From IMG/VR virus record IMGVR_UViG_3300037467_000966: a stretch of DNA of 64,000 bases; one strand, given 5' to 3'. The notes under the pieces were generated by a model that saw only the letters and a list, made by a program, of their open reading frames with translations, searched no databases and had not been told where the DNA came from. The DNA comes from a virus (taxonomy: Duplodnaviria; Heunggongvirae; Uroviricota; Caudoviricetes). This document shows positions 3,466 to 49,519 of the stretch, one piece after another. Position 1 is the stretch's first letter, and every line of letters starts with the position of its first letter. A program made the position numbers and the translations under genes.

Positions 3466-3855
3466 TTATGCTTCAGGCAGCAGAGCAATCTGGTATGATA
3501 GTACTCTCACTGTTTCTGTTTTATGTTTGTTGACGGTTATCTTCTTACCCTTCTTATCATCGTAAGAATGAGAAGTATCAAGACGGCCTACCTTGCCTTC
3601 AACAATGACAGCATCGTCTTTGTTTAACTCGCCGTTATTCTTCACATATAATTCATATGCTTTTGGAGACAAGACAACCTGTGTCTCTCCGATTCCATCG
3701 TCTAATGTGAGGTAAACACCTTCACCAAAATCTGTCATGTTCAGGATAGCTGTAACCTTACCGCCGACAGTCACGGTTTCTCCATGAGAATTTGCATTCA
3801 AAGATGCACTAAACTTTGTAACAAATGGCTTTAAACGTTGAACTAAATTTGTCAT
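3466..3855 (-). CDS. OB-fold nucleic-acid-binding protein (tRNA_anti-like OB), separate gene upstream of dnaE
   Basis: 129-aa ORF. The G-x-V-x-V-x-G-x-V segment (GETVTVGGKVTAIL...VIVEGKVG) resembles the DnaE/PolC OB domain. Confidence 0.5.
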   Translation of the reverse strand: MTNLVQRLKPFVTKFSASLNANSHGETVTVGGKVTAILNMTDFGEGVYLTLDDGIGETQVVLSPKAYELYVKNNGELNKDDAVIVEGKVGRLDTSHSYDDKKGKKITVNKHKTETVRVLSYQIALLPEA

Positions 3856-4637: not shown

Positions 4638-5425
4638 AAGATGTTTTCCCCTTTTTGATGTGTTTATTTATCACTATCTTTGCCTCCTTTTGTTTAACAA
4701 ATACAATGGGACTTCAGCTCAACTGAATACCTGCCACTCAGTTATTTCACGTATATACTCGTACTCGGTCTTCACTACTGAGGGAATGCGCCACCACTCG
4801 CCGTGGGATTACACGTCTTACATATACTTCGTCTACTAGCCACTGACTTTCATAGGGAATTTTAGGGGCGGACAGTGCCGTGACCCTTGGCTCTTCTATT
4901 GCTTGGGCGTCCCTTGCATGACATGAATTCGGTTTATCTAGCAGTACGAATTTTTTCGTGGCTGGCAACTAAGCCTCCATTAGCCGAAGCTAAAGCTAGG
5001 TACAGTCTAGAATGCCGCCTAGACCGCAGCCAGTAGTTCCCTACTTATCTTCCCCTTACTAGAGATTCCTAATATCTTATGTCAGAACACAGTATGAATT
5101 CTCATACCGTCAGCTCACATAAGATTAACTTAGATTTCGGATAGGCTGTCAGGTCACGCTCCTTCATTTATCTGCTGGTGCATCCCCCAGCTAGCACCTA
5201 CGCATCCTAATCTCTAAGTAAGACAAGAAGACTTCAGATATGTCGTCACGGATATTCTTCGGCCCACCGTGCTATCCCAGCCGATATATATGGGATTACT
5301 AAAAGTTCTTGGCATCTTCTTTATCTGGTGACGGGGTTAGTTTTTGGAAGGAGAATAAACCGTCATATCTCCTGGCTCTGGTCAACATTTTTTATTTAAG
5401 CGGGAAAGCTGCCAAACAAAACCCT

Positions 5426-5512
5426 TGGAGCTGCCAGGAGGATTCGAACCTCCGACCTCTCCCCGTCGATGTGGACTCTTGGGGGAGTATTCTACCGCTG
5501 AACTACAGCAGC
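5426..5512 (-). tRNA. tRNA-like gene with encoded CCA. Canonical acceptor, D and T arms, but a 19-nt anticodon loop (12-nt insertion). Anticodon possibly AAG if the insertion lies after position 37.
   Basis: Minus-strand read GCUGCUG-UA-GUUCAGCGGUAGAAU-A-CUCCC[19 nt]GGGAG-AGGUC-GGAGGUUCGAAUCCUCC-UGGCAGC-U-CCA. The 7-bp acceptor stem pairs (two GU), and the T loop UUCGAAU is canonical. Confidence 0.5.
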
Positions 5513-5619
5513 ATATAAAAGACACCCCGCGAAGGGTGCCCCAGTGAAAAAATTATTCTGCCTGCTCGTAGTATTTCTCTAGGATGTTTTGGATATCCAC
5601 ATATGGAAAACTTTCTGTG

Positions 5620-5823
5620 TTATACATTTGCATCATTCTCCTTTTTCTTTTTCTTTAATTTATGCAAACCGAAATCAACAAGCGCATGTAAACCAAACCC
5701 AAGAAGGAATAGTTTAATAAGCCCGAAGAATCCAGTGAAATTAAATCCAAGATTAATTAAAGCTGTTGCAATAATAACGTACAGGATAGCGGCAATAATG
5801 AATCGTAAGTTACGATGACTCAT
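5620..5823 (-). CDS. Small hydrophobic membrane protein
   Basis: 67-aa ORF with two predicted TM stretches and a lysine-rich C-terminus. Abuts the vWA gene stop. Confidence 0.4.
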   Translation of the reverse strand: MSHRNLRFIIAAILYVIIATALINLGFNFTGFFGLIKLFLLGFGLHALVDFGLHKLKKKKKENDANV

Positions 5824-6614
5824 TACAATACAACACCTTTTGATTTCGCTTGACGTAACCAGTTAGGGAATTCTTTTAATACGGCTTCGTAAAGCTTCTC
5901 GTCAGCAATTCCATTCACATCTGAAATCTTTGTGAAGTCAGCGTTGTCTAAGTAGCGGCCTGTTAAATCATCCAATGATTGCAGATAGTTGAATGACTCA
6001 TTGCCGATACCGATGAACTGCCAGAAGATACCCTGCTTAGCAGCCTCAGTAATCACACGAGTTGTTTCAGAACGGTCACCATTGTCACCATCTGTCATGA
6101 AGAATACCAGTGTAGGAATCTTAACAGGCTTTACATCTTCAGGCATAACCGTCTTGCTTACTACTTCTGTTACGGTCTTTGATTTTGCACCGAACAGTTT
6201 GCCAAGGAATCCAGCTTCCACTTCTTTTGTTACTTCTTCTTGAACAACTTGTGGAGTGATAGCTGTGCCGTACTTAGCAATAATTTGTTTCATTACTGGA
6301 GCATACTCCGTACCACCAGATGCACGAAGACCCTTCTTCTTTAAGAAGTCTTTGTGATTGCTTTCATTGGCAGAACCAATATATTCATAGCCATGATTGA
6401 AAGCATAGATGTCGATTGATTTGTTTGGGTCCATGTTCATTCCAACGCCGATGAAGCGGTCAGCTTGTTCTTGAACATTCCCTTTGTCAATTTCCCATCC
6501 CATAGAACCTGATTTGTCGATAGCGAATACGATGTTCGCTTGAAGACCAGCAAGCCCTAACTTCTCTAATACGATTGCAGATTTCTTTTTTAAATCAATT
6601 ACGTTACCCAACAT
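5823..6614 (-). CDS. von Willebrand factor A (vWA) domain protein, TerY-like
   Basis: MIDAS motif VFAIDKSGSMG followed by ...FFMTDGDNGD. Sits next to the TerC/TerD genes. Confidence 0.8.
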   Translation of the reverse strand: MLGNVIDLKKKSAIVLEKLGLAGLQANIVFAIDKSGSMGWEIDKGNVQEQADRFIGVGMNMDPNKSIDIYAFNHGYEYIGSANESNHKDFLKKKGLRASGGTEYAPVMKQIIAKYGTAITPQVVQEEVTKEVEAGFLGKLFGAKSKTVTEVVSKTVMPEDVKPVKIPTLVFFMTDGDNGDRSETTRVITEAAKQGIFWQFIGIGNESFNYLQSLDDLTGRYLDNADFTKISDVNGIADEKLYEAVLKEFPNWLRQAKSKGVVL

Positions 6615-6619
6615 GTTTC

Positions 6620-6660
6620 TCCCCCTAGAAATTAGTAAAGCGGCCCCGAAAGACCGCTTA
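6620..6660 (-). terminator. Intrinsic terminator-like hairpin after terC
   Basis: aagcgg-ccccgaaaga-ccgctt stem-loop, then an A/U-rich tail on the transcribed strand. Confidence 0.45.
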
Positions 6661-6730
6661 TTTAAAGAATCGTCTGATAGCTCTGATGGCTCTGTCTATA
6701 GATGTAATCATGCTGATAAGTTGTCTGATA

Positions 6731-7483
6731 TTACGCGGCAACATTTTTCTTGCTGCCCTTGTTCTTTAATGCGTGAACCACAAATGTTAATCCAAATGTG
6801 ATGATTAAAACAATAAAGAATAACCAGTCTGGAGCTTCATATGAAGTCCAGTGTTGACCGATAAGGTTACCTACTTCATGCAGTTCAGTTACAAACATCT
6901 TAACCGCAATCAAGAAGATAAGAACGAATGCTGTTCCTTCCATCTCTGGAACCTTATTGATAAGCTTAATGAATACACCTGCAACAGAACGCATCATTAA
7001 GATACCAAGGATACCACCAGCGATTAATACATAGAAGCTTTGAGATAAAGCAAATGCTGCTAAGATACTATCAACAGAGAAAGCAATGTCCATTAACTCA
7101 ACAGAGATAATTGTTGTAACGAATGGCGACAAGCCAAGCTTACCAAAGAATGCTTGAACCTTGTTTTCTTCGAACTCGTCATTGATACCATCGCCGTCTT
7201 CGTCTTTCTTCTTAGAGGCAAAATGCTTAATAGATAAATAAGCAAGGTATAAAGCACCAACTGTTTTGATGGCCCATAAGTATTCCCAATCAGCGATATA
7301 AGCCCAGCCGAAGATACATACAGCACGGAAGATAATCGCGCCCCACATACCATAGAAAAGTGCTTTCTTTTGCTGACTAAGTGGTAATCTCTTTGTCATT
7401 ACTGCAAGTACTAATGCATTGTCTGCGCTTAGCAAACCTTCAAGTACGACTAACGTAACTACTAGTCCAATGATTGATAACAA
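6731..7483 (-). CDS. terC: TerC-family integral membrane protein
   Basis: Multi-TM 250-aa ORF with the TerC signature LLSADNALVLAV near the N-terminus. Confidence 0.85.
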   Translation of the reverse strand: MLSIIGLVVTLVVLEGLLSADNALVLAVMTKRLPLSQQKKALFYGMWGAIIFRAVCIFGWAYIADWEYLWAIKTVGALYLAYLSIKHFASKKKDEDGDGINDEFEENKVQAFFGKLGLSPFVTTIISVELMDIAFSVDSILAAFALSQSFYVLIAGGILGILMMRSVAGVFIKLINKVPEMEGTAFVLIFLIAVKMFVTELHEVGNLIGQHWTSYEAPDWLFFIVLIITFGLTFVVHALKNKGSKKNVAA

Positions 7484-7634
7484 CTATTCCAACTCCCTAA
7501 TTAATATTTGTTTTTGATTTTGTCCACTACATGTTTTGCTGCTGCCTTCACATTATCGTGAAAGAAGTGACCTACCACATAACCAACCACGAATGTAAGA
7601 ATCGTCCCTGACATCTTCATTCCCCCTGTAGATA

Positions 7635-7672
7635 TAATATCTATATATAAGAAAGGGCCGAAGCCCTCTCGT
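7635..7672 (-). terminator. Intrinsic terminator after terD (RNA hairpin GAGAGGGC-UUCG-GCCCUUUC plus U/A-rich tail)
   Basis: gaaagggccgaagccctctc inverted repeat immediately downstream of the 7676 stop. Confidence 0.55.
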
Positions 7673-7675
7673 ATT

Positions 7676-8257
7676 TTAAGCGACTGTTAATCCATAATCT
7701 TTAACGAAACCAGCTAGGCCATTTGCATAACCAGCACCGATAGCGTTGAATTTCCATTCGCCGTTTACTTTATAAATCTCACAAACTGCTACTCCAGTTT
7801 CAATAGAGAAGTCCTCACCTAAATCAAAGCGAAGGATTTCTTCATTTGTGATTTGGTCATACACGCGGACATAAGCATTGGATACTTGTCCGAAGTTTTG
7901 AGAACGACGCTCTGCTTCATAGATAGTTACTACGAAAGCAAGCTTCTGAATGTAAGCAGGCATTACTGAAAGGTCAACTTTGATTGTCTCATCATCGCCC
8001 TCTGTGCCACCAGTCAACTCATCCCCTGAGTGCTCAACTGCACCAGAAGCATGACGTAGATTATTATAGAATATAAAGTCGCCTTCGTCACGAGTTTTAT
8101 TTAATTCATTAACCATGAATACTGAAACATCCAGGTCAAAGTCTGCTCCGCCAGCATACTTATTTGTATCCCAGCCTAATGCTACATTAATCTTTGAAAG
8201 GTTTGTTCCTTTCGTTAAATCAACACGTTGCCCTTTTTTTACCAACTCAACTGCCAT
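7676..8257 (-). CDS. terD: TerD-domain stress/tellurite-resistance family protein
   Basis: GWDTN...GADFDLDVSVF...GD..TGGTEGDDETIKVDL...FVVTIY.A...QNFGQVSNAYVRV..GEWKF.A.GAGYA.GLA is a near-textbook TerD. Confidence 0.9.
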   Translation of the reverse strand: MAVELVKKGQRVDLTKGTNLSKINVALGWDTNKYAGGADFDLDVSVFMVNELNKTRDEGDFIFYNNLRHASGAVEHSGDELTGGTEGDDETIKVDLSVMPAYIQKLAFVVTIYEAERRSQNFGQVSNAYVRVYDQITNEEILRFDLGEDFSIETGVAVCEIYKVNGEWKFNAIGAGYANGLAGFVKDYGLTVA

Positions 8258-8388
8258 GATTCATTTCCCCTTTTCATAAAAGTCTTTTACTTCCATCCAT
8301 GCTTTTTTATAACCATAGTCATGACCTAAACAAAAGCCACCAACGACTGCGATGGTGACTATGCCTAGCATCTTTAACACTTCAATCA

Positions 8389-9006
8389 TTAGTTGATTCC
8401 AGCTACATAAGCCTCAAGACCGCCGCCGTAACCAGCGCCAACAGCTTTGAATTTCCAATCTCCACTGTGCTCATAAAGCTCACCAATAACCACGCAAGTT
8501 TCAATTGAGAAGTCCTCTGATAAGTCATAACGAGCTACCACTTCACCAGTTCCATCATTGACTACTTGCACATACGCATTGTGTACTTGACCAAAGTTTT
8601 GGTTACGTGTTGCTGCATCATAGATAGTGATAGCAAAACGAACAAACTTTGCAGCGATAGGAAGCTTCGCTAAATCAATTGTTACTGTTTCATCAGGGCC
8701 AGTACCTTCACCAGTACGGTTATCCCCAGAGGATACCACGCTGCCCGTAGGGTCACTTGGATTATTGAAGAATACGAATGAGTTCTCAGATATGATTTTG
8801 CCTCCATCACCTAAGATTGCAGCAGATGCATCTAAGTCAAATGCAGAACCGTCATACTGATTAGCATCCCAACCTAATTCCACTTTGAATTTTGTTACTC
8901 CTGGTACTGATTTTGTAAGATTGATGTTACCGCCTTTTTGCAAATTAATCATTTTGTTATTCCTCCCAATTTTTCTTTTGATTTTTTCTTGAATATATTT
9001 TATCAC
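8389..9006 (-). CDS. terD: TerD-domain protein (second paralogue)
   Basis: LGWDANQYDGSAFDLDASAAIL...SGDNRTGEGTGPDETVTIDL...QNFGQVHNAYVQV...GDWKFKAVGAGYGGGL has very high similarity to canonical TerD. Confidence 0.9.
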   Translation of the reverse strand: MIKYIQEKIKRKIGRNNKMINLQKGGNINLTKSVPGVTKFKVELGWDANQYDGSAFDLDASAAILGDGGKIISENSFVFFNNPSDPTGSVVSSGDNRTGEGTGPDETVTIDLAKLPIAAKFVRFAITIYDAATRNQNFGQVHNAYVQVVNDGTGEVVARYDLSEDFSIETCVVIGELYEHSGDWKFKAVGAGYGGGLEAYVAGIN

Positions 9007-11445: not shown

Positions 11446-12044
11446 ACCATCACTCCTTGAATAAAAAAAATTCTTTACCCAATAGAAAGTACAAACAAGA
11501 TAGGATTCGAATCAGCGTGTGCATGCCCCAGGTTAGCAGCTAAAGGAAACCATAGGTTCCTCCACTCATCTAATACCTATCATTGATAAGAGAACGTCAG
11601 ACCAGGCTGGTAATTTCTAGGCATGCATTTAACCCCACCTGTACCATGAGGTCACCTACAACGTCTTGGAATTCTCTTATGCGTACTCTCTATTCAGTAA
11701 AGAATTTAAAAAGCTCCTTGGGCAGGAAGAAAATAAGATACAATCATAGGCTTCAGTGCTTACCATCCGACAGTGGGACTCGAACCCACACGCCTCTCGG
11801 CGGACAGAGCTATCTCCGTCTGCGTCTGCCAATTTCGCCATGCCCGATGGGGCTTACTTGGCACCTATGATATGGAGAAGAACTTCGGATTGGTGTCTAT
11901 TGCAGACCCCAGAAGGAATCGAACCAGCTACTTTCCGCTTATAGGCGGCTGTTTTACCCAATAAACTATGCGGGCCTCCACTACACCGTAGTTCCTGGCA
12001 TTCTTCTCATTCTTATTCTCTACCTGCCCAAAGAGCAAGTAACC

Positions 12045-13019: not shown

Positions 13020-13937
13020 TTACGCAGTAGCCTCCGTCTTTTTAGCAGGAACTTTCTTCGCTGGAGTCTTCTTTACTTCCACTTCAGCCTTTGGTTCTTC
13101 AACTGGTTCTGGTTTTAAGAAACGTGCCTTATTCAGCTTGGTATCAAAGCTCATCGTTTGTGCATTGAAGGTAACGGCATGAGTCTTTAATCCTTCACCC
13201 TGTCTTGCGTCAGCTGATAACACTGTATTGGCAAAACCTAATGCTAAGTTCGCTGCCGTTTGGTTCGTAAAGATGTTCTGAGGATTGCTCACGGCCCGCT
13301 CCGCACAACTCATTTCATGTGGAAGTTTATCTGTTGCCTCTAGAATCTCTGGATACATATCCGCTACGCTTGGAAGATTGAATAAGTGAGGAACCTTTTC
13401 GCCCTTCACAAAGTCACGTCCAGCATTGTAACCAACAACAACTTGACCAGCCCACTCTTCATTTCCCATGTCCAGCCAGAACATACCTTTTGTTTCCTTG
13501 AACACTTCATTCACAATCGCACGAGTCTTATTGTTATCCACCGCACCGACTACGAAAGGAACCAAGTTATGCCGATTAACAATTTGCTTTAACATCTTTG
13601 GCCCATCCAGATATTCTCCAATGATGGTTACCTCAACACCGAACGCACCGCCATAACGCATGCCCATGATTTCAGCTTTGTTATGACCAACATCTCTTGG
13701 CAAGAAGTTCTGACGTGTTAAGTTCTTATCCTCAACGCTGTCTGCATCAATGATAGTTACTGCATGCAATGCCTTGTTCTCCAGCTTAAGCATTCTGTTT
13801 TGAAGACTGATTTGACGAATTAATTGTGGAATAAAATAACCGCCGTTGCCGCCTGCTCCAATAATAATCCAATGCTTTGCCTTCTTTGCTTGTACATCCA
13901 AAGTATAAGTTGGTTCTAATGCCATTGATAAATCCAT
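13020..13937 (-). CDS. E1-like ubiquitin-activating enzyme (ThiF/MoeB fold)
   Basis: Rossmann motif WIIIGAGGNGGY, then IIDADSVEDKNLTRQNF...DVGHNKAEI (the E1/ThiF ATP-binding and arginine-finger region). K/P/E-rich C-terminal tail. Confidence 0.8.
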   Translation of the reverse strand: MDLSMALEPTYTLDVQAKKAKHWIIIGAGGNGGYFIPQLIRQISLQNRMLKLENKALHAVTIIDADSVEDKNLTRQNFLPRDVGHNKAEIMGMRYGGAFGVEVTIIGEYLDGPKMLKQIVNRHNLVPFVVGAVDNNKTRAIVNEVFKETKGMFWLDMGNEEWAGQVVVGYNAGRDFVKGEKVPHLFNLPSVADMYPEILEATDKLPHEMSCAERAVSNPQNIFTNQTAANLALGFANTVLSADARQGEGLKTHAVTFNAQTMSFDTKLNKARFLKPEPVEEPKAEVEVKKTPAKKVPAKKTEATA

Positions 13938-14007: not shown

Positions 14008-15294
14008 TTAATCTAAGAACCAATCATTACGTTCGCCATGAAGATGACCATAACCGCTGTTCTCAGTCATTGTATCACTCACAACGTAATCGTACCCAAG
14101 GTCAATCAGCTCTTGAACGATTTCCTTAACGGTCTCTTCCACTTCGCCAATTGATTTAGTGTCGTCTCCCAGATTTTTTTCCAGAAAAATTTCGACTTCT
14201 GTTCTCGGCTCGCTGCTTGCGCTTTTGCTCGCGCTGCTCCCGCTTAGTGATTCTTTTTTTTTAGAATCTAAGCCTTGTGCTTTCGCATTAGCTGCCACAA
14301 TATCATCCTTGTTCGCTCGTCCCCCTGGTGAGCCATGGTAGCCATAGCCGCCAGATGTCCCATACCCATAGTAGTCCCACTCGTCCCCCCACTTGTCGTA
14401 ACTGGGAGATGTCCCTGTCCCCGACTTTTTTGCGTGATAGTTGTAACCTCCGTAAGAACGAGAGTGTTGTCCCATCCAATCGTCTGGAGCTTCAACACGA
14501 GGCCATGGTCCTTTAAATGATTTGTGTTCTACTTTTTCTTCGACTACTGGTTCGAATCCTTCTACTGGTACAGTAGTTGTTACCAGTGTCTTGATTTCTA
14601 CTTGAGGAATATCAAACAGCAAAGCTGGGTCAATGTTTACGCGTGTGCCGCCACATACCCAACGGAATAAGAAGTTTGGTTCATCCTTGTCGATGTTGCC
14701 CCATACTCCGTAGAACTGAGTCATGTTTTCATTGGCATCATCTGTACCAGACCAGAACGCTCCCATCGTATGGTGGCTGTGCGTCTCACATAATGGTGTG
14801 CAATTCTCACGAAGATAATTCACCATCCCATCCTGATGGAACTCAGATAATGAACCAGAGTTCTTTTGCTGTGGACAATACACAATCAACTGTCCATCTT
14901 CAATAAGGCCCTTGATGTCTGTGCCATCTGTATACTTTGGTGGCAGCTCCACATTATCATGATTCCAGAAGAACAATGCGCTGGCTTCTGTCTTATCCTT
15001 CGTATGAACATCACGATAGAAAGTTAATACCATGATTAGATACTTCAAAGGAATCTTTGGAATCAATAACTCTGGACCTTCTTCCATTGATTCAAGACCT
15101 GGAATTGCTTTGTCCGCTGGGATATCTGAAAGCTTTACTTTGAATAAAGCAACAGGAGTCTTCACCACTCGGAAGACCCCGTTACGTGCAACAACGATAT
15201 TGGTTGGTTTATCATAAGCCTCAGCTGGTTGTGGACCGAAGTGCTTACCTACTAATTGACCTGCTAACATTGCGGTTAAATCTAAATTTGCCAT
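14008..15294 (-). CDS. JAB/MPN (JAMM) metallopeptidase with long low-complexity G/Y/S-rich C-terminal region
   Basis: Perfect JAMM motif E...HSHHTMGAFWSGTD (H-x-H-x7-S-x2-D). Confidence 0.75.
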   Translation of the reverse strand: MANLDLTAMLAGQLVGKHFGPQPAEAYDKPTNIVVARNGVFRVVKTPVALFKVKLSDIPADKAIPGLESMEEGPELLIPKIPLKYLIMVLTFYRDVHTKDKTEASALFFWNHDNVELPPKYTDGTDIKGLIEDGQLIVYCPQQKNSGSLSEFHQDGMVNYLRENCTPLCETHSHHTMGAFWSGTDDANENMTQFYGVWGNIDKDEPNFLFRWVCGGTRVNIDPALLFDIPQVEIKTLVTTTVPVEGFEPVVEEKVEHKSFKGPWPRVEAPDDWMGQHSRSYGGYNYHAKKSGTGTSPSYDKWGDEWDYYGYGTSGGYGYHGSPGGRANKDDIVAANAKAQGLDSKKKESLSGSSASKSASSEPRTEVEIFLEKNLGDDTKSIGEVEETVKEIVQELIDLGYDYVVSDTMTENSGYGHLHGERNDWFLD

Positions 15295-18428: not shown

Positions 18429-19508
18429 TTAAGCTAATTTAATCACTAGCTTTGTGAAACGGGCACCTTTCGTACCAGCTTTCACGGTGAAACGAATCTC
18501 GTCGCCAACCACTTCGAATGTTGCATTCTTCAGTTCAGGGAAGATTTCGCTCATGGATGCCTGGATTTCTTCAGGCTTTAAGCTGTCGTCTTCCACGTTA
18601 AGGCGGTTAGAGCCGTATACAACGACTCTCGCACCTTTCGTACCAGCCTTAACAGTGAATCGGATTTCATCCCCAACAACTTCAAACGTTGCGTTTTTCA
18701 ACTCAGGAAAGATTTCAGACATGGAAGCCTGAATCTCTTCTGGTTTTAAGGAATCATCCTCAACATTTAAACGATTAGAACCATAAACAACTACGCGTGC
18801 CATACCTTTCGTCCCCGCTTTCACTGTGAATCGAATTTCATTTCCAACTACCTCGTAGGTAGCATTCTTCAACTCTGGAAAAATCTCAGACATAGATGCC
18901 TGGATTTCTGCTGGAGTCAAAGATGAGTCCTCTACATTCAGACGGTTTGAACCATACACAACAACTCTTGTCATACCTTTTGTACCTGCCTTTACTGTGA
19001 ATCGGATTTCGTTTCCTACTACTTCATACGTAGCATTTTTAAGCTCTGGGAAAATCTCGCTCATAGAAGCTTGAATCTCCGCTGGTGTTAAAGAAGAATC
19101 TTCAACATTCAAACGATTGGAGCCGTAAACAACCACGCGGGTCTGGCCTGAACCAGAACCCTTTGTGCCTGCTTTGACAGTGAAACGAATCTCATTGCCT
19201 ACGACTTCGAAAGTAGCGTTCTTAAGCTCAGGGAAAATCTCAGACATAGAAGCTTTGATTTCCTCTGGGCTTAAAGAATCATCCTCAACGTTTAAGCGGT
19301 TGGAACCGTATACCACAACGCGGGTAGCACCCTTCGTCCCAGCTTTAACTGTGAAGCGGATTTCGTTTCCAACGACTTCGTAAGTTGCATTCTTTAACTC
19401 AGGAAAAATTTCAGACATTGACGCTTGAATTTCTGCAGGTGTTAAAGAAGAATCCTCCACGTTAAGACGATTTGAACCATAAACCACTACTCTTGTTTGA
19501 TTAGACAT
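18429..19508 (-). CDS. Tandem hexa-repeat small-domain protein (6 x ~57 aa, each unit ending ...KAGTKG), candidate polyubiquitin-like precursor
   Basis: Six near-identical units (T)RVVVYGSNRLNVED(S/D)SL(T/K)P(A/E)EI(Q/K)ASMSEIFPELKNAT(Y/F)EVVG(N/D)EIRFTVKAGTKG. First gene of the operon that ends with E2-like, JAB and E1. Confidence 0.6.
   Translation of the reverse strand: MSNQTRVVVYGSNRLNVEDSSLTPAEIQASMSEIFPELKNATYEVVGNEIRFTVKAGTKGATRVVVYGSNRLNVEDDSLSPEEIKASMSEIFPELKNATFEVVGNEIRFTVKAGTKGSGSGQTRVVVYGSNRLNVEDSSLTPAEIQASMSEIFPELKNATYEVVGNEIRFTVKAGTKGMTRVVVYGSNRLNVEDSSLTPAEIQASMSEIFPELKNATYEVVGNEIRFTVKAGTKGMARVVVYGSNRLNVEDDSLKPEEIQASMSEIFPELKNATFEVVGDEIRFTVKAGTKGARVVVYGSNRLNVEDDSLKPEEIQASMSEIFPELKNATFEVVGDEIRFTVKAGTKGARFTKLVIKLA
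18462..19499 (-). repeat. Six tandem ~171-180 bp near-identical coding repeats
   Basis: DNA-level repetition is visible (e.g. gtgaaacgaatctcgtc/gccaac...cttcagttcaggg recurs with period ~171-180 bp). Confidence 0.85.
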
Positions 19509-22989: not shown

Positions 22990-23769
22990 TTAATATCCGC
23001 CTGGACTTTCTTCGCGGTGTCCTTGCCCACTGACAATCATGTTGTTTAACTTTCTAATATAATCACCCATTGTTTTGCATTCTTCCATGTGAGGAAATCC
23101 ACGGTTCTTCATTATCTTAAAGCATGTATCACCAACTTCATCTTCAACCATCTTTAAGCAATTACGAAGAAGAATATCTGTGCCCATTGGCTCCTTAACT
23201 GCTTCTTTTATTTCAGCATTCAATGGAGTATCAATGGTGAATCCATACTTGGCAGCGAACCGAATCGCCCGTGTTGCTAAGTTTGTTGTCATCCTGTCCG
23301 TTGTTTTTCTAATGATTCCTCTATCAAGGTCACGCCATGCATACTTCGGAGCATAGAAAAAACCATCTGACTTCAAACATATCTGATTAATACTAAAGTC
23401 AAAACGAACGGGAGCGAATGCCCACTCATCATCTGCATTAATCCAATGAACAGGTATTTCTGATTTCGTGAATGTGTAGGGGTCGCAATAGATGTCATGA
23501 GGAATCTCTGTTCCATCCTGCTGCCCAAGTGCTAACACTCCTGTCTTTTCTAAGATGTCTCTTGCATAAGGAACATCACGAATACAAACATCATAATCAT
23601 TCCAGTGCTTTCCCTTGTATAAATCCCTAGGAAACCCACCTGCAAATGACCATTGTGTTCCATGTTCCATTGCAACTGAATCCATTATATCCATGAATGT
23701 TTTCATGCCTGCATCAATCTGACCTTCATAAGGTCGTCTTTCGTATTCAACTTCAGTCGGGTGCATCAT
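22990..23769 (-). CDS. Hypothetical protein
   Basis: 259-aa ORF with coherent composition. Confidence 0.6.
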   Translation of the reverse strand: MMHPTEVEYERRPYEGQIDAGMKTFMDIMDSVAMEHGTQWSFAGGFPRDLYKGKHWNDYDVCIRDVPYARDILEKTGVLALGQQDGTEIPHDIYCDPYTFTKSEIPVHWINADDEWAFAPVRFDFSINQICLKSDGFFYAPKYAWRDLDRGIIRKTTDRMTTNLATRAIRFAAKYGFTIDTPLNAEIKEAVKEPMGTDILLRNCLKMVEDEVGDTCFKIMKNRGFPHMEECKTMGDYIRKLNNMIVSGQGHREESPGGY

Positions 23770-23995
23770 TTACCTCCTTTCATTAAACAAAACATCCAGC
23801 GTTCAGCATCATCGTTTCACGGCCCCGTGCTCGCGCAGTAGCCTGCCACTAGCTTAATAACTGGATGTGACATATAGATTTCAGATTAATCCTAAGACCT
23901 TCACCTAAAACGGTATGGCGGGAATCTCGCTTTTACTCGCTATGAGGACATTAATTACCAGCGTTGTCATCGCCGTAACCCTATTCTTAGGCAAC

Positions 23996-24151
23996 CTTAA
24001 TTTCTATTCATCTTAGACAGCACGATGTCAATCGTCACTGAAGTGTAGCTGCTCCCAAGAAGTCAACTCACTTAGGTAGTAAAAAATACTGGTTGGAGAT
24101 AACCTAAAAAACCTACCTACCATCATACTGTCTAAGACAAATAGAACCACA
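23996..24151. repeat. Inverted-repeat-flanked element, copy 1 (TIRs TTAATTTCTATTCATCTTAGACAG / CTGTCTAAGACAAATAGAACCA)
   Basis: ~22-bp imperfect terminal inverted repeats enclosing ~110 bp. Confidence 0.6.
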
Positions 24152-24316
24152 TCAACTTCGGACGGTGTACCATAATCCCCCTTCCTTCGATGTTGACCAC
24201 TCCTTGAATCAATCACGAAGGCGTAGGAAGTCCGCAGCCCATATTTAATCCTTGGCATTGATGTGGGATAAACAGATTTCAGTAGACCGCTTACGCTATT
24301 AGCGGGGTCCATGTGT

Positions 24317-24416
24317 CCTTAATTTCTATTCATCTGGGAAGATGCAAAGGCGGGGCCTACAATCGGGCATAATCCGCGGTCATATCATTGCATCCTCCAA
24401 GATAAATAGAACCATG
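24317..24416. repeat. Inverted-repeat-flanked element, copy 2 (TTAATTTCTATTCATCTGGGAAG / CTCCAAGATAAATAGAACCA)
   Basis: Same TIR family as copy 1, with different interior. Confidence 0.55.
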
Positions 24417-24563
24417 TGTAATTCAACGTCAACAGGCTGCCACGCTGCGTGACATTTAAACTTCGTCAAAGCTCCATCACCCTAGCTTAATATACACATG
24501 GTAATAAACAGATTTCAGAATCAATAGATGTGCAAGGCGGCTTAGAAGGCCGCGGCACTCATC

Positions 24564-24649
24564 TTAATTTCTATTTATCTTAGAAGGTACAACACATAAG
24601 TTGTGAGCTGGTCAAGCTCGTTATACCCTCTAGGATAAATAGAACCACA
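24564..24649. repeat. Inverted-repeat-flanked element, copy 3 (TTAATTTCTATTTATCTTAG / CTAGGATAAATAGAACCA)
   Basis: Same TIR family. Spacers between copies share TAAACAGATTTCAG. Confidence 0.55.
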
Positions 24650-24895
24650 TAGAGTTCAGTGTCGCGGTGTGAAGAGTTTGTTGGCTCGCTATGAGTTTCC
24701 ATCCCATCACTAACTTAATATCTATGTGGAACGCAAGAACTTCGGTTTCAAACAGGAATTGGTTTCCACTCACTAGTGCTGTCCACCCTAACCTTGGCAT
24801 TCTTACATCTTTGAAAATACGAAGCAGGGGAAAGGAACCGAAAAGGAAACCTGCCTCGTACCCTCAAAGACGAAAGAATATCTTTCGCCCGAAGC

Positions 24896-25288
24896 CTACC
24901 AGTCGTATTCAATACTACCAAACTTGATTTCAATCAATTGCTTGATGACCGCATCATACTTATCAAGTTTTAATCTCACTTGATTCTCTGTCATCTTGCC
25001 TTCCTCCAACTTACTTTCATAATAATATTTATTATCCAGTATGCTGTCGGCAATTCTTTCAAGGTCAAGAACCTCGCGTCGATTCAATTCAAATTCTTCT
25101 TTGATAAAAGAATACAATGGGTCTTTCACATCACCGATATAATCAAAGTGTTTCAACATCGCATCTGGAAGTTCCATTAGTTCTTCCAATGTTTGCGGAT
25201 TGTTAAACTTCCTTAAGAAAGCATCGACTCGTTTTAAGTCAATGCCTTCCTTCTTTGCAAACTCTCTTAATAATGAAATACCGTCCAC
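24896..25288 (-). CDS. Hypothetical protein
   Basis: 130-aa ORF. Confidence 0.55.
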   Translation of the reverse strand: MDGISLLREFAKKEGIDLKRVDAFLRKFNNPQTLEELMELPDAMLKHFDYIGDVKDPLYSFIKEEFELNRREVLDLERIADSILDNKYYYESKLEEGKMTENQVRLKLDKYDAVIKQLIEIKFGSIEYDW

Positions 25289-28377: not shown

Positions 28378-28613
28378 TTTGACTCCTCCACTTCTTCTTC
28401 TAATGGTTCACCGAATGCTGCCGATACAAGAATCGTATTGCTGTTGTCGTACTCCCAAACTTTCACGAATGGGTCAATGCCTTTTGGAGCCTTAAACTTA
28501 CGTGTTGTGCGTGGCGGGATGGGACTCATATCGCATTCAATCCCATGAATCGCTGTTGCTGGATGAATCACATACTCCTTGTTTGTATCATTGTAAAATA
28601 TCATATTATCCAC
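28374..28613 (-). CDS. Hypothetical protein
   Basis: 79-aa ORF. Confidence 0.5.
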   Translation of the reverse strand: MDNMIFYNDTNKEYVIHPATAIHGIECDMSPIPPRTTRKFKAPKGIDPFVKVWEYDNSNTILVSAAFGEPLEEEVEESK

Positions 28614-29341
28614 CCATCTAAAGTCGCATCAAAGATTAAATCTCTTAGCTTCTCCTGAAGCTGATTGTTTACTTCGACACGAATTTCTTTTGATTTGTAA
28701 ACATCTTTTAATTCTTGTGCTGCTGTTTCCCAATCCTTAATCAGCATTCTGATTTCATCAAATGTAAACTTACCACGTTTGATATCTATCATGAACTGGC
28801 GTTCTTCACCTTCATACCAGATAGCTTTCTTGTAGTCCGTAAAGCCATTTGCATGAAACTTAACCAGTACTTTGCAAAGATGAACAGCCAACATTGCTTT
28901 CTTTGGATTGTAAGCATGTCGTTCAATCAGTGCCCGTGTCTTCTCCGAAGTTGGATTCTGAAGGTCATTGATGTTCCGCTGAACCGTACCCATCGTAGCA
29001 CTGTAAAGATTGGAGAGATTCATATTGGCTATGTCATCTCTCATCGCAATGATTTCATCCATCTTCTGGCATCCGAATGTTTCAATGCCTGGGCTAAATA
29101 ATAAATCAAGATAAGCAGGATTCGCTTTGAACAATAAAGTCTCAAGCCGTCTTACATCCTGAACATCTTCATCCACTTCATCCGAAGTTGTTTGCTTTGC
29201 ATGCTTCTTGCCTTCATATAAATCATCAAAGGTTGGAAGAACAAAGTATTTCAAATCCACATCTGATTGTTCATCATTTAAATTACGCATATGACTGCCG
29301 CCATTTATCATAGCAACAACATGTCTGTCATGCTTCTTCAT
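28601..29341 (-). CDS. Predicted nucleotidyltransferase (Pol-beta superfamily fold)
   Basis: GGSHMRNLNDEQSDVDL fits the GS-x9-13-DxD NTase signature. Confidence 0.5.
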   Translation of the reverse strand: MKKHDRHVVAMINGGSHMRNLNDEQSDVDLKYFVLPTFDDLYEGKKHAKQTTSDEVDEDVQDVRRLETLLFKANPAYLDLLFSPGIETFGCQKMDEIIAMRDDIANMNLSNLYSATMGTVQRNINDLQNPTSEKTRALIERHAYNPKKAMLAVHLCKVLVKFHANGFTDYKKAIWYEGEERQFMIDIKRGKFTFDEIRMLIKDWETAAQELKDVYKSKEIRVEVNNQLQEKLRDLIFDATLDGWII

Positions 29342-32783: not shown

Positions 32784-33338
32784 TTATTCTTCGATTACAA
32801 GCAACGTATGAACATAGCTAAGAATCTGTGCCTTAGCATGTGCTGTTAACTTGCAGTCACGCACCCATTTAGGAGCCTCATCTGAGCCGATGTTGCGTCC
32901 TCCGCCCATCTGCATATAGATATCACCCTCTGCAAAATCAGAGGCAAATATGCTGATGTTATCAATTGTAGCGGCATGTGTTTGAAGACGAACCTTACAA
33001 AGGATACCAGCCTTCACTTGATTTTCAGTTGGTTCAAAGATATCAATCATCTTAATGCCTAGTACTTCATTGCTTGACTCATCAGTAACAATAGATAAGT
33101 CGCCTTTACGGTTCAAGTACCAGAATGGTTTTGCACCGCTGCCAGTGGCACGACGAGTATTGTTATCAGCTTGGTCAAACGCAATACGTGGACTAACTTG
33201 CTTAGTTTCTTTCTTAGCTGCTGGAGCCTTAGTTGATTTACGAGTAGTTGTTTTTGTTGTCATTGTGACAACCTCCTTCGAATAGTTAATATATTTAAAA
33301 GACCCCATTGCTGGGGCCGCCTTACACATAAATTCCAA
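32784..33338 (-). CDS. K/T-rich N-terminus protein, paralogue of 46615-47175
   Basis: Shared architecture and shared C-terminus AQIL(S/R)YV(H/D)(T/S)LLV with the 46615 gene. Confidence 0.6.
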   Translation of the reverse strand: MEFMCKAAPAMGSFKYINYSKEVVTMTTKTTTRKSTKAPAAKKETKQVSPRIAFDQADNNTRRATGSGAKPFWYLNRKGDLSIVTDESSNEVLGIKMIDIFEPTENQVKAGILCKVRLQTHAATIDNISIFASDFAEGDIYMQMGGGRNIGSDEAPKWVRDCKLTAHAKAQILSYVHTLLVIEE

Positions 33339-33561
33339 TTGCTCTTCTTTGTCTTACTGGATTCAATACAAATTCACGGAGTATTAAGAATGCATCAATC
33401 ATCAAACATACCACTGACCATATCTTAAAGAACAATGGGATTGCTGCCCAAGTTACAATGGTCATCGTTGTTTCAATCAATAGACTGCATACCATCCATG
33501 TCTTCGCACCAATTGATGTTTTTCTTGCTGACACTATCTTCTTGGTATCCAACCATCTCAT
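33322..33561 (-). CDS. Small membrane protein, paralogue of 48507-48710
   Basis: SIGAKTWMVCSLLIETTMTIVTWAAIPLFFKIW vs SVGAKSWMVMSFLIESCMAFTMWSVIPWFFKLW. Confidence 0.5.
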   Translation of the reverse strand: MRWLDTKKIVSARKTSIGAKTWMVCSLLIETTMTIVTWAAIPLFFKIWSVVCLMIDAFLILREFVLNPVRQRRAIGIYV

Positions 33562-33564
33562 CTC

Positions 33565-33837
33565 CTATCTAATCGTGTCGGGGATTTTCCACCGAGTCAT
33601 GATTGGTATTGGATGCAAGATGTATGGAAATTCGACTACGAAAAATAAACCATGACAATCTGTACATAGATTCATTTCTGCAATCAAATGGGTTTCACGA
33701 GAATCAATCACATCAATCAGTTCGGGAGCCGCATAATTCTTACAGTGCGGACAACATGTATCATTTGACCAATAATGTTCTGATACAATTGCCACATCTA
33801 CTTCTTTATAGGCAACACCTGCCGTCATCTGAATCAC
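33565..33837 (-). CDS. Cys-rich small protein (CCPHC...CTDC), putative zinc finger
   Basis: 90-aa ORF. Confidence 0.45.
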   Translation of the reverse strand: MIQMTAGVAYKEVDVAIVSEHYWSNDTCCPHCKNYAAPELIDVIDSRETHLIAEMNLCTDCHGLFFVVEFPYILHPIPIMTRWKIPDTIR

Positions 33838-33840
33838 CTC

Positions 33841-34098
33841 CTAGCGAATATCATCTTTTGCTAATAGCACTTTAGCATCTTTGTTATTACCAAGATTCAT
33901 ACTGAATTGATAAACCTCACTGTCTTCTGGATGCTTTCCAAGAAAGACTACAGGCTGACCAATCGCGTTGCCTAATCGTGTTGCAACTTCCTTGCTCCAC
34001 CTCTCACCTCCACCAGTATAGAGACTGACAATTCCTTCTTTTCGCAATATTTCCTCAGCTTGCTTCCATTGTGACGGTAAATTTTTTCTATCTAGCAA
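33841..34098 (-). CDS. Hypothetical protein
   Basis: 85-aa ORF. Confidence 0.5.
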   Translation of the reverse strand: MLDRKNLPSQWKQAEEILRKEGIVSLYTGGGERWSKEVATRLGNAIGQPVVFLGKHPEDSEVYQFSMNLGNNKDAKVLLAKDDIR

Positions 34099-34431
34099 AT
34101 GGCCTCAACTCCTTTCGTACCAAGGGATAGAAAATTCACAGAATATTCATAATAAACTTTCTTCTTTTTCCGAGGTGTAATTTTCTCTAAAAACCTTTAT
34201 TAGTATATATAGAGTGACTTTTCTACGACGCATGATGTAGAGAGTTACATTCTACAGAAAATGGAAGAAAAGAAAAACCACCACCAAAAAGGTACAGCGT
34301 GCGTACAGAGTTAGCGTGGAGTGCGAAGCATGACCACGCAGAAACGATAGCGTACAATATATACTTTATAAGATGGGGGTCTAAGGGGGCTGGACCCTTG
34401 ACCCAGTATATCCATATGGGTAGTAATGTAC

Positions 34432-35181
34432 CTACACTGCACTCAAGCCATCATCATCTGTATCGGACAGTTCGTGCGCGTCCACCCAGTCAGCAGCTGC
34501 ATCATCTGGATTCCAATCAATCATTGCTGGTGCATCAGCCAAGTGAGCCGTTAACTGAGACTTGAATGAATCAGTCAGGCTTTGTACCTTTGCCTTCTTC
34601 TCTGCATCAATCTCTACTGTACGCTTAGCACGGGCTTCATACGCCGCCTTCTGACTGATATAAGTATCACGAAATTTCTTTGTTACTTCACATGATTCAT
34701 CATCCAATGGTAGTGCTACCCAATTCATTGGCTCTCTTGTTTCCTGATAACCAAAGATACTTGGACGACGTTTAAATGGATATGTTCCATGCAATTCATC
34801 GAGCAGTTCATGGATATATTTAAAGTCTTTGAATATCTGAGTCTGATTTATACCAACATATTCAGATACTTTCATTGTGAAATCCATATCTCCTGAATAA
34901 TAGATAGTGCCATTTACGAAATCAGCCACCGCATAAAACTTCTCAGGAGCCTCATCTTGCATCAATATGGCATCACCCTTATGAATGTCTACCTGCTTGC
35001 CTATCATCGCAGGATGGCCCGATAGAACCGTTACACCTACCAATGCCTTCAAGACGTTGTCTACGACAGCCATTGAGCCAACCAGTTCTTCATAACCCAG
35101 GCGCTTTGCATACTCATCACCAATGGTTACATATTGTACTTGTTTCATAGTTAAATCCTCCTTTTGGATACTTCTGTGCAT
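34432..35181 (-). CDS. Hypothetical protein
   Basis: 249-aa ORF. Confidence 0.6.
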   Translation of the reverse strand: MHRSIQKEDLTMKQVQYVTIGDEYAKRLGYEELVGSMAVVDNVLKALVGVTVLSGHPAMIGKQVDIHKGDAILMQDEAPEKFYAVADFVNGTIYYSGDMDFTMKVSEYVGINQTQIFKDFKYIHELLDELHGTYPFKRRPSIFGYQETREPMNWVALPLDDESCEVTKKFRDTYISQKAAYEARAKRTVEIDAEKKAKVQSLTDSFKSQLTAHLADAPAMIDWNPDDAAADWVDAHELSDTDDDGLSAV

Positions 35182-41167: not shown

Positions 41168-41632
41168 TCAAAGCTCATCCTCATTGCATACTGGAAAAGC
41201 TTGATAATCATCTCTAGTAGAGAACACTCTGCCATTCCAACAGATGTAGTTGTATTTAAGGTCCTTTGCTGTGTGTATACATTCCCGCCAGGATTTTGGC
41301 ATCATCCTCTTTGCGTCAAACACATCCCTCCAGCCATTTGGCTTTGGCTCTTCAATATATTCCATGAACTTATGAGAATATAAATCCAGAAATCCAAGCG
41401 AGATATCTTTCTCCCTGCCATCGGCTAGCCTGCCTATCATCCGATTCATCTGTGGATTACACCAGAAATAAAGAACAGGAGTCAGCCGAGTATTTGTACT
41501 TGACCAACATCCTGAATCAGGGTTGTTCCAATCTTCGTTGTACTTCAAACCATTTTCACTAACAGTCGTTACTTTCTTGCCAGATTTCAGCATCTCGTAA
41601 AGTTCGACTGACTTTTGCCCTATATTAATCAT
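41168..41632 (-). CDS. Hypothetical protein
   Basis: 154-aa ORF. Confidence 0.55.
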   Translation of the reverse strand: MINIGQKSVELYEMLKSGKKVTTVSENGLKYNEDWNNPDSGCWSSTNTRLTPVLYFWCNPQMNRMIGRLADGREKDISLGFLDLYSHKFMEYIEEPKPNGWRDVFDAKRMMPKSWRECIHTAKDLKYNYICWNGRVFSTRDDYQAFPVCNEDEL

Positions 41633-47498: not shown

Positions 47499-48062
47499 TT
47501 AAGCTTCCTTATCAAATAACTTTCCTAGCGGACCTAAATCCATCTTGCCACCGCCAAGCTTTCCTAATAAATCACCCAGGCTAACCTCTTTAAGCTCTGG
47601 CTTTTCCCATGGTAACTTGCCACCCATCATATCTTTCAAATCCTTAGGCAGTTCGCCACCATTCTTTGCCTCCTCATGCTTCAAGAACGCCTTCAATAAC
47701 GGATTATCCTTTGGAATAGCCATGCCTTTACCATGAATAGGATGATTAACAGGAATAGCACCAGTCTTCTTCATAAGGTCATCCAGCATGCCTTGCATAA
47801 AATCCTTCTCATCCTGCTCATCAGCGGCGGACGCCATAGCCTCATCCAAATCTACTTCCATTACCTGACGTAGTTCAAATAGAATACCAGGAAGCTCCTT
47901 TAATACTTTCAAACCTTCCATTAAGTTATAATCAGAAACAGAAACCTCTAAGCCTTCAATAATAATACCATCAGCTAATTGTGGTACTGGAATCATCACT
48001 TTACCTAATTTAAAATTCATGTTCATGTCAACATACCTCCAAAGTTTTATAATAAATTTCAC
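47499..48062 (-). CDS. Hypothetical protein
   Basis: 187-aa ORF. Confidence 0.6.
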   Translation of the reverse strand: MKFIIKLWRYVDMNMNFKLGKVMIPVPQLADGIIIEGLEVSVSDYNLMEGLKVLKELPGILFELRQVMEVDLDEAMASAADEQDEKDFMQGMLDDLMKKTGAIPVNHPIHGKGMAIPKDNPLLKAFLKHEEAKNGGELPKDLKDMMGGKLPWEKPELKEVSLGDLLGKLGGGKMDLGPLGKLFDKEA

Positions 48063-48259
48063 ATGACTAAAGGGAGATACCAGCGCGGCACCTCCCTACT
48101 TTAACTTATATTCTATCACACTTTTACCTTCCATAGAAGCGAATAACATATCCTGCTTATGCGCACATCCAGCAAACGGGTCTTCCAATGTACCACATAG
48201 TAAACAACAAGCACTGCCTTCCATTTCATCAATGATTGGATGACTCTGCATTTCTCTCA

Positions 48260-48520
48260 TTATTCAACAACCTCCGTAAGGGAATACATTAAATCTAACA
48301 ACGGCTCGGATAAAACCTCCTCAATATAGCCGCGGTAAGGACTATCCAAATAATCAATCTCTAACGTAGGCTCTTCACCCTGAGAATCAACTATATGAAT
48401 CGTAGCCTCATCACCATCAGGAACAGTAACAGTAACGACGGCAACAACACCACTCTCAAATAAATCATCCGTAGGTTCCTCTACAACTAAATTAGCATTA
48501 CCAATACTAAACATATACAT
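48260..48520 (-). CDS. Acidic small protein
   Basis: 86-aa ORF. Confidence 0.5.
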   Translation of the reverse strand: MYMFSIGNANLVVEEPTDDLFESGVVAVVTVTVPDGDEATIHIVDSQGEEPTLEIDYLDSPYRGYIEEVLSEPLLDLMYSLTEVVE

Positions 48521-49423: not shown

Positions 49424-49519
49424 TCTACCATTCCTCCTATATAGTACTACTTATGCCTATTAGCTAAATCATATAGCATTATGACACCACATATGAAAAA
49501 CAATGCCGCCACGTATAAC

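Follow-up and report, generated by a model that had tools for sequence, protein, structure and literature searches.

The 64,000-nt stretch of viral DNA analyzed in this study (hereafter the window), assigned to the Caudoviricetes, contains a gene with the shape of a tRNA in which the anticodon loop is 17–19 nt long and not 7 nt, as in a canonical decoding tRNA. This raises the question of what such an RNA is: a tRNA interrupted by an insertion, the remnant of a tRNA gene, or an RNA with a function other than decoding.

A tRNA-shaped gene without a usable anticodon

A preliminary description of this DNA had proposed that the gene be examined with covariance models and ARAGORN. The Rfam tRNA model (RF00005) accepted it with 51.7 bits against a gathering score of 29; model positions 1–71 were fully matched, with an 18-nt insertion placed in the anticodon loop of the 5426–5512 gene. 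ARAGORN called it on the minus strand with exactly these borders, but assigned no anticodon ('tRNA-???'). The identical gene is present on three independent short contigs from other samples (L001–L003). Its parts are as follows.

5426–5512, minus strand: whole tRNA-shaped gene, 87 nt (ARAGORN, Rfam tRNA model; three identical contigs)
5506–5512, minus strand: 5′ strand of the acceptor stem, partner strand 5430–5436 (sequence, pair counts)
5489–5503, minus strand: D arm, GUUC AGCGGUA GAAU (Rfam alignment, pair counts)
5459–5487, minus strand: 29-nt anticodon arm, CUCCCC-CAAGAGUCCACAUCGAC-GGGGAG, an exact copy of the tip of helix 89 (H89) of 23S rRNA (100% match to the Priestia megaterium 23S gene)
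5465–5481, minus strand: 17-nt H89 apical loop (alignment of phage copies, pair counts, identity of loop versus body)
5437–5453, minus strand: T arm, GGAGG UUCGAAU CCUCC (Rfam alignment, pair counts)
5429, minus strand: discriminator U
5426–5428, minus strand: encoded CCA

Written by segment, the gene reads GCUGCUG UA GUUC AGCGGUA GAAU A CUCCC CCAAGAGUCCACAUCGACG GGGAG AGGUC GGAGG UUCGAAU CCUCC UGGCAGC U CCA, and it has the 7-bp acceptor stem, the D arm and the UUCRANY-type T loop of the RF00005 cloverleaf. The anatomy and the CCA end given in the preliminary description were correct, but the acceptor and D stems, which had been called perfect, hold three G·U pairs (U6·G67 and G7·U66 in the acceptor stem, G10·U25 in the D stem). 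The anticodon stem had been read correctly as CUCCC/GGGAG closing a 19-nt loop, except that it can be extended by one C-G pair, which yields a stem of 6 bp and a loop of 17 nt.

The minimum-energy fold of the window copy, taken as a single sequence, is not the cloverleaf; the latter is supported by covariation among homologues (see below). Judged from its sequence, the window RNA would be a cloverleaf without a usable anticodon, which could not decode. Its acceptor end resembles that of bacterial tRNA-Gly in the presence of G1-C72, C2-G71 and U73 (and also G3-C70 in the homologue from L183), but the tRNA-Gly identity bases C35 and C36 are absent from the window gene. We found no indication of a tmRNA: ARAGORN reported none, position 3-70 is U-A and not G3·U70, and the 87-nt RNA contains no reading frame.

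The anticodon arm is identical to the tip of 23S rRNA helix 89

A scan of IMG/VR with the core of the loop returned the same 17 bases closed by different stems, which prompted a comparison with rRNA. This analysis revealed that the arm is identical, in 29 of 29 nt, to the tip of H89 in its Bacillota form. H89 belongs to domain V and lies beside the peptidyl transferase centre. The identity ends exactly at tRNA positions 26 and 44, and BLAST of the 29-nt arm against a single rRNA operon gave E = 1e-9, so that the match is far beyond chance. In the Priestia operon it falls inside the region that aligns to E. coli 23S rRNA.

The exact arm (CTCCCCCAAGAGTCCACATCGACGGGGAG) was found in at least 120 bacterial genome stretches, and the organisms among the matches listed include Bacillus, Priestia megaterium, Paenibacillus, Clostridium and Enterococcus, as well as some cyanobacteria and proteobacteria. 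All 121 genomic occurrences of the 29-mer that we examined lie inside 23S, between the domain V flanks GGGGAUAACAGGCUUAU and GUUUGGCACCUCGAUGUCGGCUC or a near variant. In all 5,426 E. coli genomes, the E. coli equivalent, GAUACCGCC-CAAGAGUUCAUAUCGAC-GGCGGUGUU, falls within annotated 23S rRNA; we take it to occupy approx. positions 2458–2490 in helix 89, with the counterpart of the phage arm at approx. 2461–2489, a numbering that agrees with the known positions D2449, Ψ2457, G2470 and U2479.

Both the sequence and the pairing of the H89 apical stem-loop are present in the window arm, in which the internal G-C and A-U pairs of the H89 loop are retained. The arm shares all of its 29 bases with the Bacillota helix, but lies outside rRNA: its flanks are the D arm and the variable loop of the tRNA, and the lower half of H89 is missing, its place being taken by the D arm and the rest of the tRNA body. 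BLAST of the window against an rRNA operon detected no other rRNA-like segment. No second copy or complement of the loop was found in the window, and the idea of an antisense or repeat element was dropped.

Divergent tRNA bodies carry a conserved loop

We compared the locus with relatives whose vWA-TerF protein is 53–84% identical to the one encoded beside the gene. Gene order is kept in these relatives, and arrays of tRNA and tRNA-like genes follow the same hairpin-plus-U-tract as in the window. The H89 arm is present in two of them, L032 (63% protein identity) and L183 (80%), and the element is absent at the same locus in L029, L030, L031, L179 and L180/L181; only three tRNA-borne copies were found. 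The L032 gene reads GCAGCGG UG GUGU AAUGGUAA ACAC U GUCCCC-CAAGAGUCCAUAUCGAC-GGGGAU ..., and the L183 gene GCGGCAG UA GCUU AGGUA GAGU G CCCC-CAAGAGUCCACAUCGAC-GGGG ....

No part of the gene is better conserved than the loop. The latter is identical to the window copy at 16 of 17 positions in L032 and at 17 of 17 in L183, versus 29 of 58 (50%) and 34 of 58 (59%), respectively, for the tRNA body. The L183 copy is too divergent to be detected by ARAGORN or Rfam; its minimum-energy structure is the cloverleaf.

An alignment on the cloverleaf, which included the orthologue from L030 beside the copies with an H89 arm, had 95.3% of its cells paired and nine pairs with compensatory changes, which involve all four stems. 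None of 500 shuffles was as good, and no slid register came close. Among the homologues, 2 of the 7 acceptor pairs (with 100% of cells paired) and 4 of the 5 T-stem pairs show compensatory changes. The cloverleaf of the window gene is therefore supported by covariation, and the changes in all four stems contradict the earlier suggestion of a tRNA pseudogene. The body of the L030 orthologue is closest to that of L183 and bears a different arm with a 9-nt loop, so that the arm behaves like exchangeable cargo.

Homologues were also sought in wider collections. Megablast of the locus against GenBank phages gave no match, and a scan of IMG/VR with the D-arm/T-arm pattern returned nothing. A scan of this kind in metagenomes yielded 24 long-loop tRNAs, none of them homologous, most being archaeal-type intron-bearing Gly or Ala genes.

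The sets of tRNA-like genes of the relatives occupy 4597–5175 in L029, 11152–11408 in L030, 5993–6326 in L031 and 11108–11281 in L032. Each gene follows a UAU(A/U)AU motif, and many terminate in UCCA. The sets include an amber-suppressor-type tRNA(CUA) in L029, normal tRNA-Trp genes and several cloverleaf-like RNAs having anticodon arms of 18–30 nt without an rRNA match; no match to these other cargo arms was found in rRNA operons from 120 genomes.

The same hairpin occurs outside tRNA bodies

In L046, a relative of SPO1-like Bacillus phages, the hairpin is free (CCCUCUCCUCU-CAAGAGUCCAUAUCGAC-AGAGGAGAGGG) and located between the tRNA-Arg and tRNA-Ser genes of a 15-tRNA array. It is also present in an unannotated gap of approx. 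600 nt in the cultured phages KoopaTroopa, Tsamsa, Izhevsk and BcoS-136 and in the IMG/VR records L036 and L044/L048. In the cultured phages this gap opens with a TTGACA-17-TATAAT promoter directly after 11–20 tRNA genes, and in L036 and L048 tRNA genes of the same strand lie upstream of it. The gap precedes a gene for a 480-aa protein.

Across eight phage contexts the 15-nt core AAGAGUCCAYAUCGA is invariant, and 5 of the 6 pairs of the closing stem covary (e.g. C-G to U-A at the loop-adjacent pair). The hairpin occurs with different stems in at least five phage lineages other than that of the window. Selection therefore acts on the loop and on the existence of a closing stem, not on the sequence of the latter. 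All identifiable hosts are Bacillus-type, and all copies have the Bacillota form of the loop (UCCAY), not that of E. coli (UUCAU). A scan of IMG/VR with the E. coli-type loop gave only two matches in coding sequence and one real 23S fragment.

Several other matches were discarded. Of the 17 IMG/VR matches to the loop core, 13 fall in coding sequence, lack a closing stem and were ascribed to chance. The match in Paenibacillus phage Pd_22F comes from a true 23S fragment contained in the record, and those in Pseudomonas Pakpunavirus represent a terminator of weak similarity. Short records of Enterococcus, Listeria and Staphylococcus that carry no annotation were left out as probable host rDNA. 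An exact 18-nt match to the 690-loop region of 16S rRNA (UUCCACGUGUAGCGGUGA; L048 2500–2517, L044 4787–4804) lies inside a 572-aa ORF and was dismissed as probably due to chance, although it is unusually long for this.

Genomic setting of the window gene

All long ORFs of the window are on the minus strand. They encode a DnaE-type polymerase, RNase H, a Ter cluster, a nucleotidase, ThiF and JAB proteins, a sigma factor, NAPRTase, a PRPP-synthetase-like protein, an RlaP nucleotidyltransferase and a CCA-adding enzyme, and their PHROG families are consistent with a phage origin. The neighbouring vWA-TerF protein, whose nearest cellular homologues are from Priestia and Brevibacillus, also occurs on a contig of 526,029 bp, which points to a very large phage. 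The following features form the surroundings of the tRNA-shaped gene.

5517–5540, minus strand: G+C-rich hairpin GGCACCC UUCGCG GGGUGUC, then UUUU (sequence; same arrangement in L029–L032)
approx. 5100–5378, minus strand: neighbouring structured non-coding element of approx. 280 nt (alignments, long-range helices)
28601–29341, minus strand: RlaP-family nucleotidyltransferase (RNA-end repair function)
41629–42882, minus strand: phage CCA-adding enzyme, i.e. tRNA nucleotidyltransferase with an HD domain (Pfam PolyA_pol 1.9e-23, PolyA_pol_RNAbd, HD)

The last of these bears out the preliminary mention of a phage CCA-adding enzyme. No RNA ligase was found among the window ORFs scanned.

The hairpin at 5517–5540 is separated from the tRNA-shaped gene by the leader AUAU, which directly precedes the gene. 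By its sequence, the hairpin looks terminator-like, or it may be a processing or stability element; a simple terminator scan did not call it. Upstream of the gene we found no convincing promoter, only weak promoter-like sites. The Ter cluster (vWA-TerF-like, TerC and two TerD proteins; 5823–9006, minus strand) is located immediately upstream, as in all relatives.

On the other side of the gene, the approx. 280-nt element lies directly 3′ of the last tRNA-like gene in every relative (L030 11403–11665, L031 6311–6672, L032 11276–11565). Its helices pair AGAUAAAGAAGAU with GUCUUCUUGUCUU and ACUUAGA with UCUAAGU, with a few compensatory pairs. It had no match in Rfam, including the GOLLD, ROOL, group I intron, RNase P and tmRNA models, and a scan of IMG/VR for it returned nothing. 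Beyond it, ORF-poor sequence continues for approx. 450 nt, to about position 4640. An OB-fold 'tRNA_anti-codon' protein (3466–3855) was considered as a partner of the RNA and dropped, as it belongs to a replication module beside DnaE and RNase H in all relatives.

Two more tRNA-like genes are present in the window, both on the minus strand. In the one at 11904–11975 (Rfam 31.4 bits), the anticodon loop consists of 6 nt (CUAUAA) and both the acceptor and the T stem contain mismatches, those of the acceptor being conserved in the L032 homologue. The other (11764–11848) is Leu-like, with a long variable arm and no CCA, and its anticodon arm can be drawn with an 8-nt loop (AGAUAGCU) or, alternatively, with a 4-nt loop on a stem of 7 bp; its counterpart in L030 is a normal tRNA-Leu(UAG). 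Unusual tRNA-like genes were also observed on other contigs: five from the human gut (L007, L015, L018, L025 and L028, one contig being 502 kb long) contain tRNA-likes with a conserved 13-nt anticodon loop (UUGCGGGUUACUG), L008/L023 have one with a loop of 20 nt, and L017, L024 and L027 have tRNAs in which a UAU anticodon loop is combined with a variable arm of unusual length.

Elsewhere in the window, ThiF (E1-like), JAB and prokaryotic-ubiquitin-matching proteins are encoded together (13020–13937, 14008–15294 and 18429–19508, minus strand), which suggests a putative ubiquitin-like conjugation system of the phage. The Prok_Ub match is strong overall, with no single passing stretch and many spurious weak matches beside it. 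ORF-free gaps of 1–2 kb (48062–50099, 33338–34432 and 23769–24896) could contain further non-coding RNAs. GC skew is most extreme at 46–50 kb, where the AT skew is reversed as well.

Ro60-like proteins beside the Tsamsa-type copies

The protein encoded downstream of the hairpin gap contains DUF2828, DUF7788 and vWA domains and belongs to PHROG 850 ('RNA-binding protein'). The seven best PDB matches of its AlphaFold model (24 homologues; pLDDT 79) are Ro60/TROVE proteins, including Ro60 of Thermus phage phiLo (E = 2e-7 to 7e-5), so that the protein is predicted to have a Ro60-like fold. The RNA gaps upstream of the DUF2828 genes contain repeated modules, UAGACAC-ACACAGCAA ... GUGUCUAG, and in the Priestia contig L185 one module encloses a permuted tRNA-like domain, which is the architecture of YrlA. 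Phage Ro60 proteins bind Y-like RNAs encoded just upstream of them (PMC12135203), and bacterial Y RNAs mimic tRNA and contain tRNA-like domains (PMC4201824).

These Y-RNA-like modules are unannotated in the GenBank records. Each array contains 2–4 of them (L174 2290–2790, KoopaTroopa; L177 1285–1790, Tsamsa; L178; L185 2400–2920; L186 2740–2945).

Two DUF2828 loci (Priestia and Thermoactinomyces) have Y-like modules and lack the H89 hairpin. Conversely, no DUF2828/Ro60-like gene was found in the 64-kb window, from a genome of approx. 526 kb, nor, despite its hairpin, within the examined stretch of L046. The hairpin is therefore an optional companion of Ro60-like systems and not a defining part of them.

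A proposed mimic of H89 on a tRNA scaffold

The hairpin recurs in three RNA scaffolds, each associated with tRNA arrays, and molecular mimicry is the simplest reading of the data. We propose, with slightly better than an even chance of being right, that the tRNA body is a scaffold displaying a mimic of H89 which binds or diverts a factor that recognizes this helix. The gene would specify a small, stable, tRNA-shaped and non-decoding RNA in which the anticodon stem-loop has been exchanged for the H89 apical stem-loop of the host 23S rRNA. Once transcribed, such an RNA could owe to its tRNA body a compact fold and processing by RNase P and at the 3′ end, and its CCA could be kept in repair by the host or the phage CCA-adding enzyme. 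The displayed hairpin, a free copy of a ribosomal surface, would titrate, divert or recruit a protein that recognizes the H89 tip on the 50S subunit.

One candidate partner would be a host defence effector that damages or modifies the ribosome, in which case the RNA would act as a decoy. To PIN-domain toxins, hairpins of rRNA and anticodon arms of tRNA are similar substrates, so that the anticodon position would be a plausible site for presenting such a bait. The H89 tip is also the binding site of orthosomycin antibiotics. We know of no toxin or enzyme aimed at this tip, and none was found in our literature search. In jumbo phages, RlaP, CCA-adding enzymes and TROVE proteins probably serve in the repair of RNA that host effectors have damaged (PMC7824862); two members of this repair set, RlaP and the CCA-adding enzyme, are present in the window, which makes a decoy for a ribosome-directed effector attractive.

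Other candidates would be uL16, which binds in a cleft formed by H38 and H89, IF2 or another H89-contacting GTPase (IF2-C2, Obg), or a phage RNA quality-control particle of the Ro60 type. H89 forms the uL16 cleft and touches the acceptor arm of the A-site tRNA (PMC3950693), its tip contacts IF2 at the C2 domain, by which the acceptor end of the tRNA is held as well (PMC4611024; the IF2 contact is credited to La Teana et al. 2001 in a passage of PMC3496166), and the N-terminal domain of Obg contacts H89 (PMC4028186). Ribosomal proteins such as uL16 contact several helices simultaneously, so a hairpin on its own may be a weak ligand for them. The patchy occurrence of the element among close relatives, the lack of a convincing promoter upstream, the terminator-like hairpin directly before the gene and the small number of tRNA-borne copies (three) likewise count against the proposal.

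Alternative explanations

The preliminary description had offered a mini-intron or 12-nt insertion after position 37, with the anticodon AAG, whose splicing would give tRNA-Leu(AAG) or a similar decoding tRNA. Rfam does align the full tRNA model with one insertion, and intron-bearing tRNAs with a similar D arm exist in metagenomes, but these are unrelated genes of the archaeal Gly/Ala type. No contiguous deletion of 12 nt restores a canonical loop with U33 and a purine at 37, no bulge-helix-bulge motif of two 3-nt bulges around a 4-bp helix can be drawn, and the insert, which exceeds a normal loop by 12 nt, falls far below the size of a group I intron, whose core measures approx. 200 nt or more. 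Moreover, an intron would show the opposite pattern of conservation, whereas here the insert is the best conserved part and belongs to a 29-nt copy of H89; we therefore regard this explanation as extremely improbable. It is also improbable that the gene is a non-functional accident, either a decaying tRNA gene with captured host rDNA or a chimera of assembly. The patchiness of the element, the degenerate appearance of the two neighbouring tRNA-likes and a copy (L183) beyond the detection of Rfam and ARAGORN might be expected of such an accident; the identical sequence in independent assemblies of different samples might not, nor might stems kept paired by compensatory changes, a loop far better conserved than its body, rRNA identity that stops exactly at the boundaries of the arm, and the independent presence of the hairpin, with different stems, in at least five other phage lineages.

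The remaining explanations concern functional RNAs. If the functional part were the tRNA end, the RNA, without decoding, would serve as a decoy for, or a substrate of, enzymes or toxins acting at the acceptor stem or CCA, such as nucleotidyltransferase/pyrophosphokinase toxins or the phage CCA enzyme, and the bulky arm would merely bar it from translation. The well-kept acceptor stems and discriminator U, the phage-encoded CCA-adding enzyme, the two odd tRNA-likes in the window and the tRNA-likes with aberrant arms and no rRNA match in the arrays of relatives are in keeping with this, and an acceptor-end decoy is possible for the many other aberrant tRNA-likes of the relatives. For the window gene we consider it unlikely, as it leaves unexplained the use of an exact rRNA helix, the invariant 15-nt core against diverging bodies and the hairpins without a tRNA body in L046 and the Tsamsa-like phages. 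The tRNA-like decoy listed in the preliminary description comes close to the best-supported reading. We see a similarly small chance that the RNA is a module of a phage Ro60-type particle for RNA quality control or repair, with the hairpin as a handle which a Ro60-like ring and its associated nucleases would bind or be offered, for example so as to steer them to or from damaged 23S rRNA. The Tsamsa-like hairpins lie among Y-RNA-like modules directly upstream of a Ro60-like gene, in keeping with the binding of such RNAs by phage Ro60 and the tRNA-like domains of Y RNAs (see above), but Ro60-like genes are lacking from the window and the examined part of L046, and two DUF2828 loci do without the hairpin. 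Such a module is possible, and would be compatible with mimicry and not exclusive of it.

Relation to known systems

A 'tRNA scaffold' for recombinant RNA was reportedly engineered by Ponchon and Dardel in 2007, with the anticodon stem-loop replaced by a cargo hairpin and a tRNA body that is said to provide RNase P and 3′ processing as well as protection from nucleases. The window gene has the same layout, with cargo in place of the anticodon, but it is natural and phage-encoded, and its cargo is a host ribosomal helix.

RNA anti-CRISPRs and tRNAs resistant to anticodon nucleases are used by phages to counter RNA-targeting defences of the host. Such RNAs, often encoded in tRNA clusters, share with the role proposed for the window RNA the principle that a host factor is absorbed or evaded through imitation or replacement of a host RNA, but the known ones imitate CRISPR repeats or are working tRNAs, whereas the window RNA imitates a helix of large-subunit rRNA.

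YrlA Y RNAs (PMC4201824, PMC12135203) are likewise small tRNA-mimicking non-coding RNAs, encoded by phages near tRNA genes in a context of RNA quality control and repair. In YrlA, however, it is the ends of the RNA that pair into the Ro-binding stem, and a loop caps the acceptor stem, whereas the window RNA has an open, normal acceptor stem with CCA; no Ro-binding stem motif lies near it, and no Ro60-like gene accompanies it in the window. The leaders of ribosomal protein operons (cf. PMC10931766) also copy local rRNA structure outside the ribosome for a ribosome-binding protein. These are cis-acting mRNA leaders of cellular genes, in contrast to the tRNA-borne and putatively trans-acting RNA of the phage, which is not followed by a ribosomal protein gene.

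Apart from the generic tRNA match, the hairpin-bearing RNAs belong to no family in Rfam 15, and a full-text literature search returned no report of phage H89 mimics, of other mimics of a large-subunit rRNA helix or of tRNA-likes bearing rRNA. The H89-mimic RNA thus appears to be previously undescribed. There is a substantial chance that the hairpin-bearing RNAs, which are akin to known tRNA-like non-coding RNAs and RNA mimics, represent a new functional class. The fuller proposal, that small RNAs of large Bacillus-type phages display an exact mimic of the H89 tip (on a tRNA body, as a free hairpin or in Y-like arrays) and so neutralize a host effector attacking or reading this region of the ribosome, or capture a translation or assembly factor of the uL16/IF2/Obg/RbgA class, we put forward tentatively, at somewhat less than an even chance.

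Significance for phage biology

The chimera accounts for one kind of 'tRNA-???' gene reported by tRNA finders, and its signature (AAGAGUCCAYAUCGA, closed by a stem and located beside tRNA genes) can be searched for. Should the hairpin function as a mimic, it would point to a factor of Bacillus and its relatives that recognizes the H89 tip, e.g. a ribosome-directed defence toxin, or alternatively to a step of translation or 50S assembly that phages manipulate; the 29-nt hairpin could itself serve as a bait for fishing out this factor. If the proposal is true, the RNA would represent the first trans-acting rRNA decoy found in nature, as well as nature's equivalent of the engineered tRNA scaffold, and rRNA decoys would join tRNA replacement and CRISPR-repeat mimics among the RNA counter-measures of phages, which would in this way take over or protect the ribosomes of their hosts through a captured factor or a neutralized effector.
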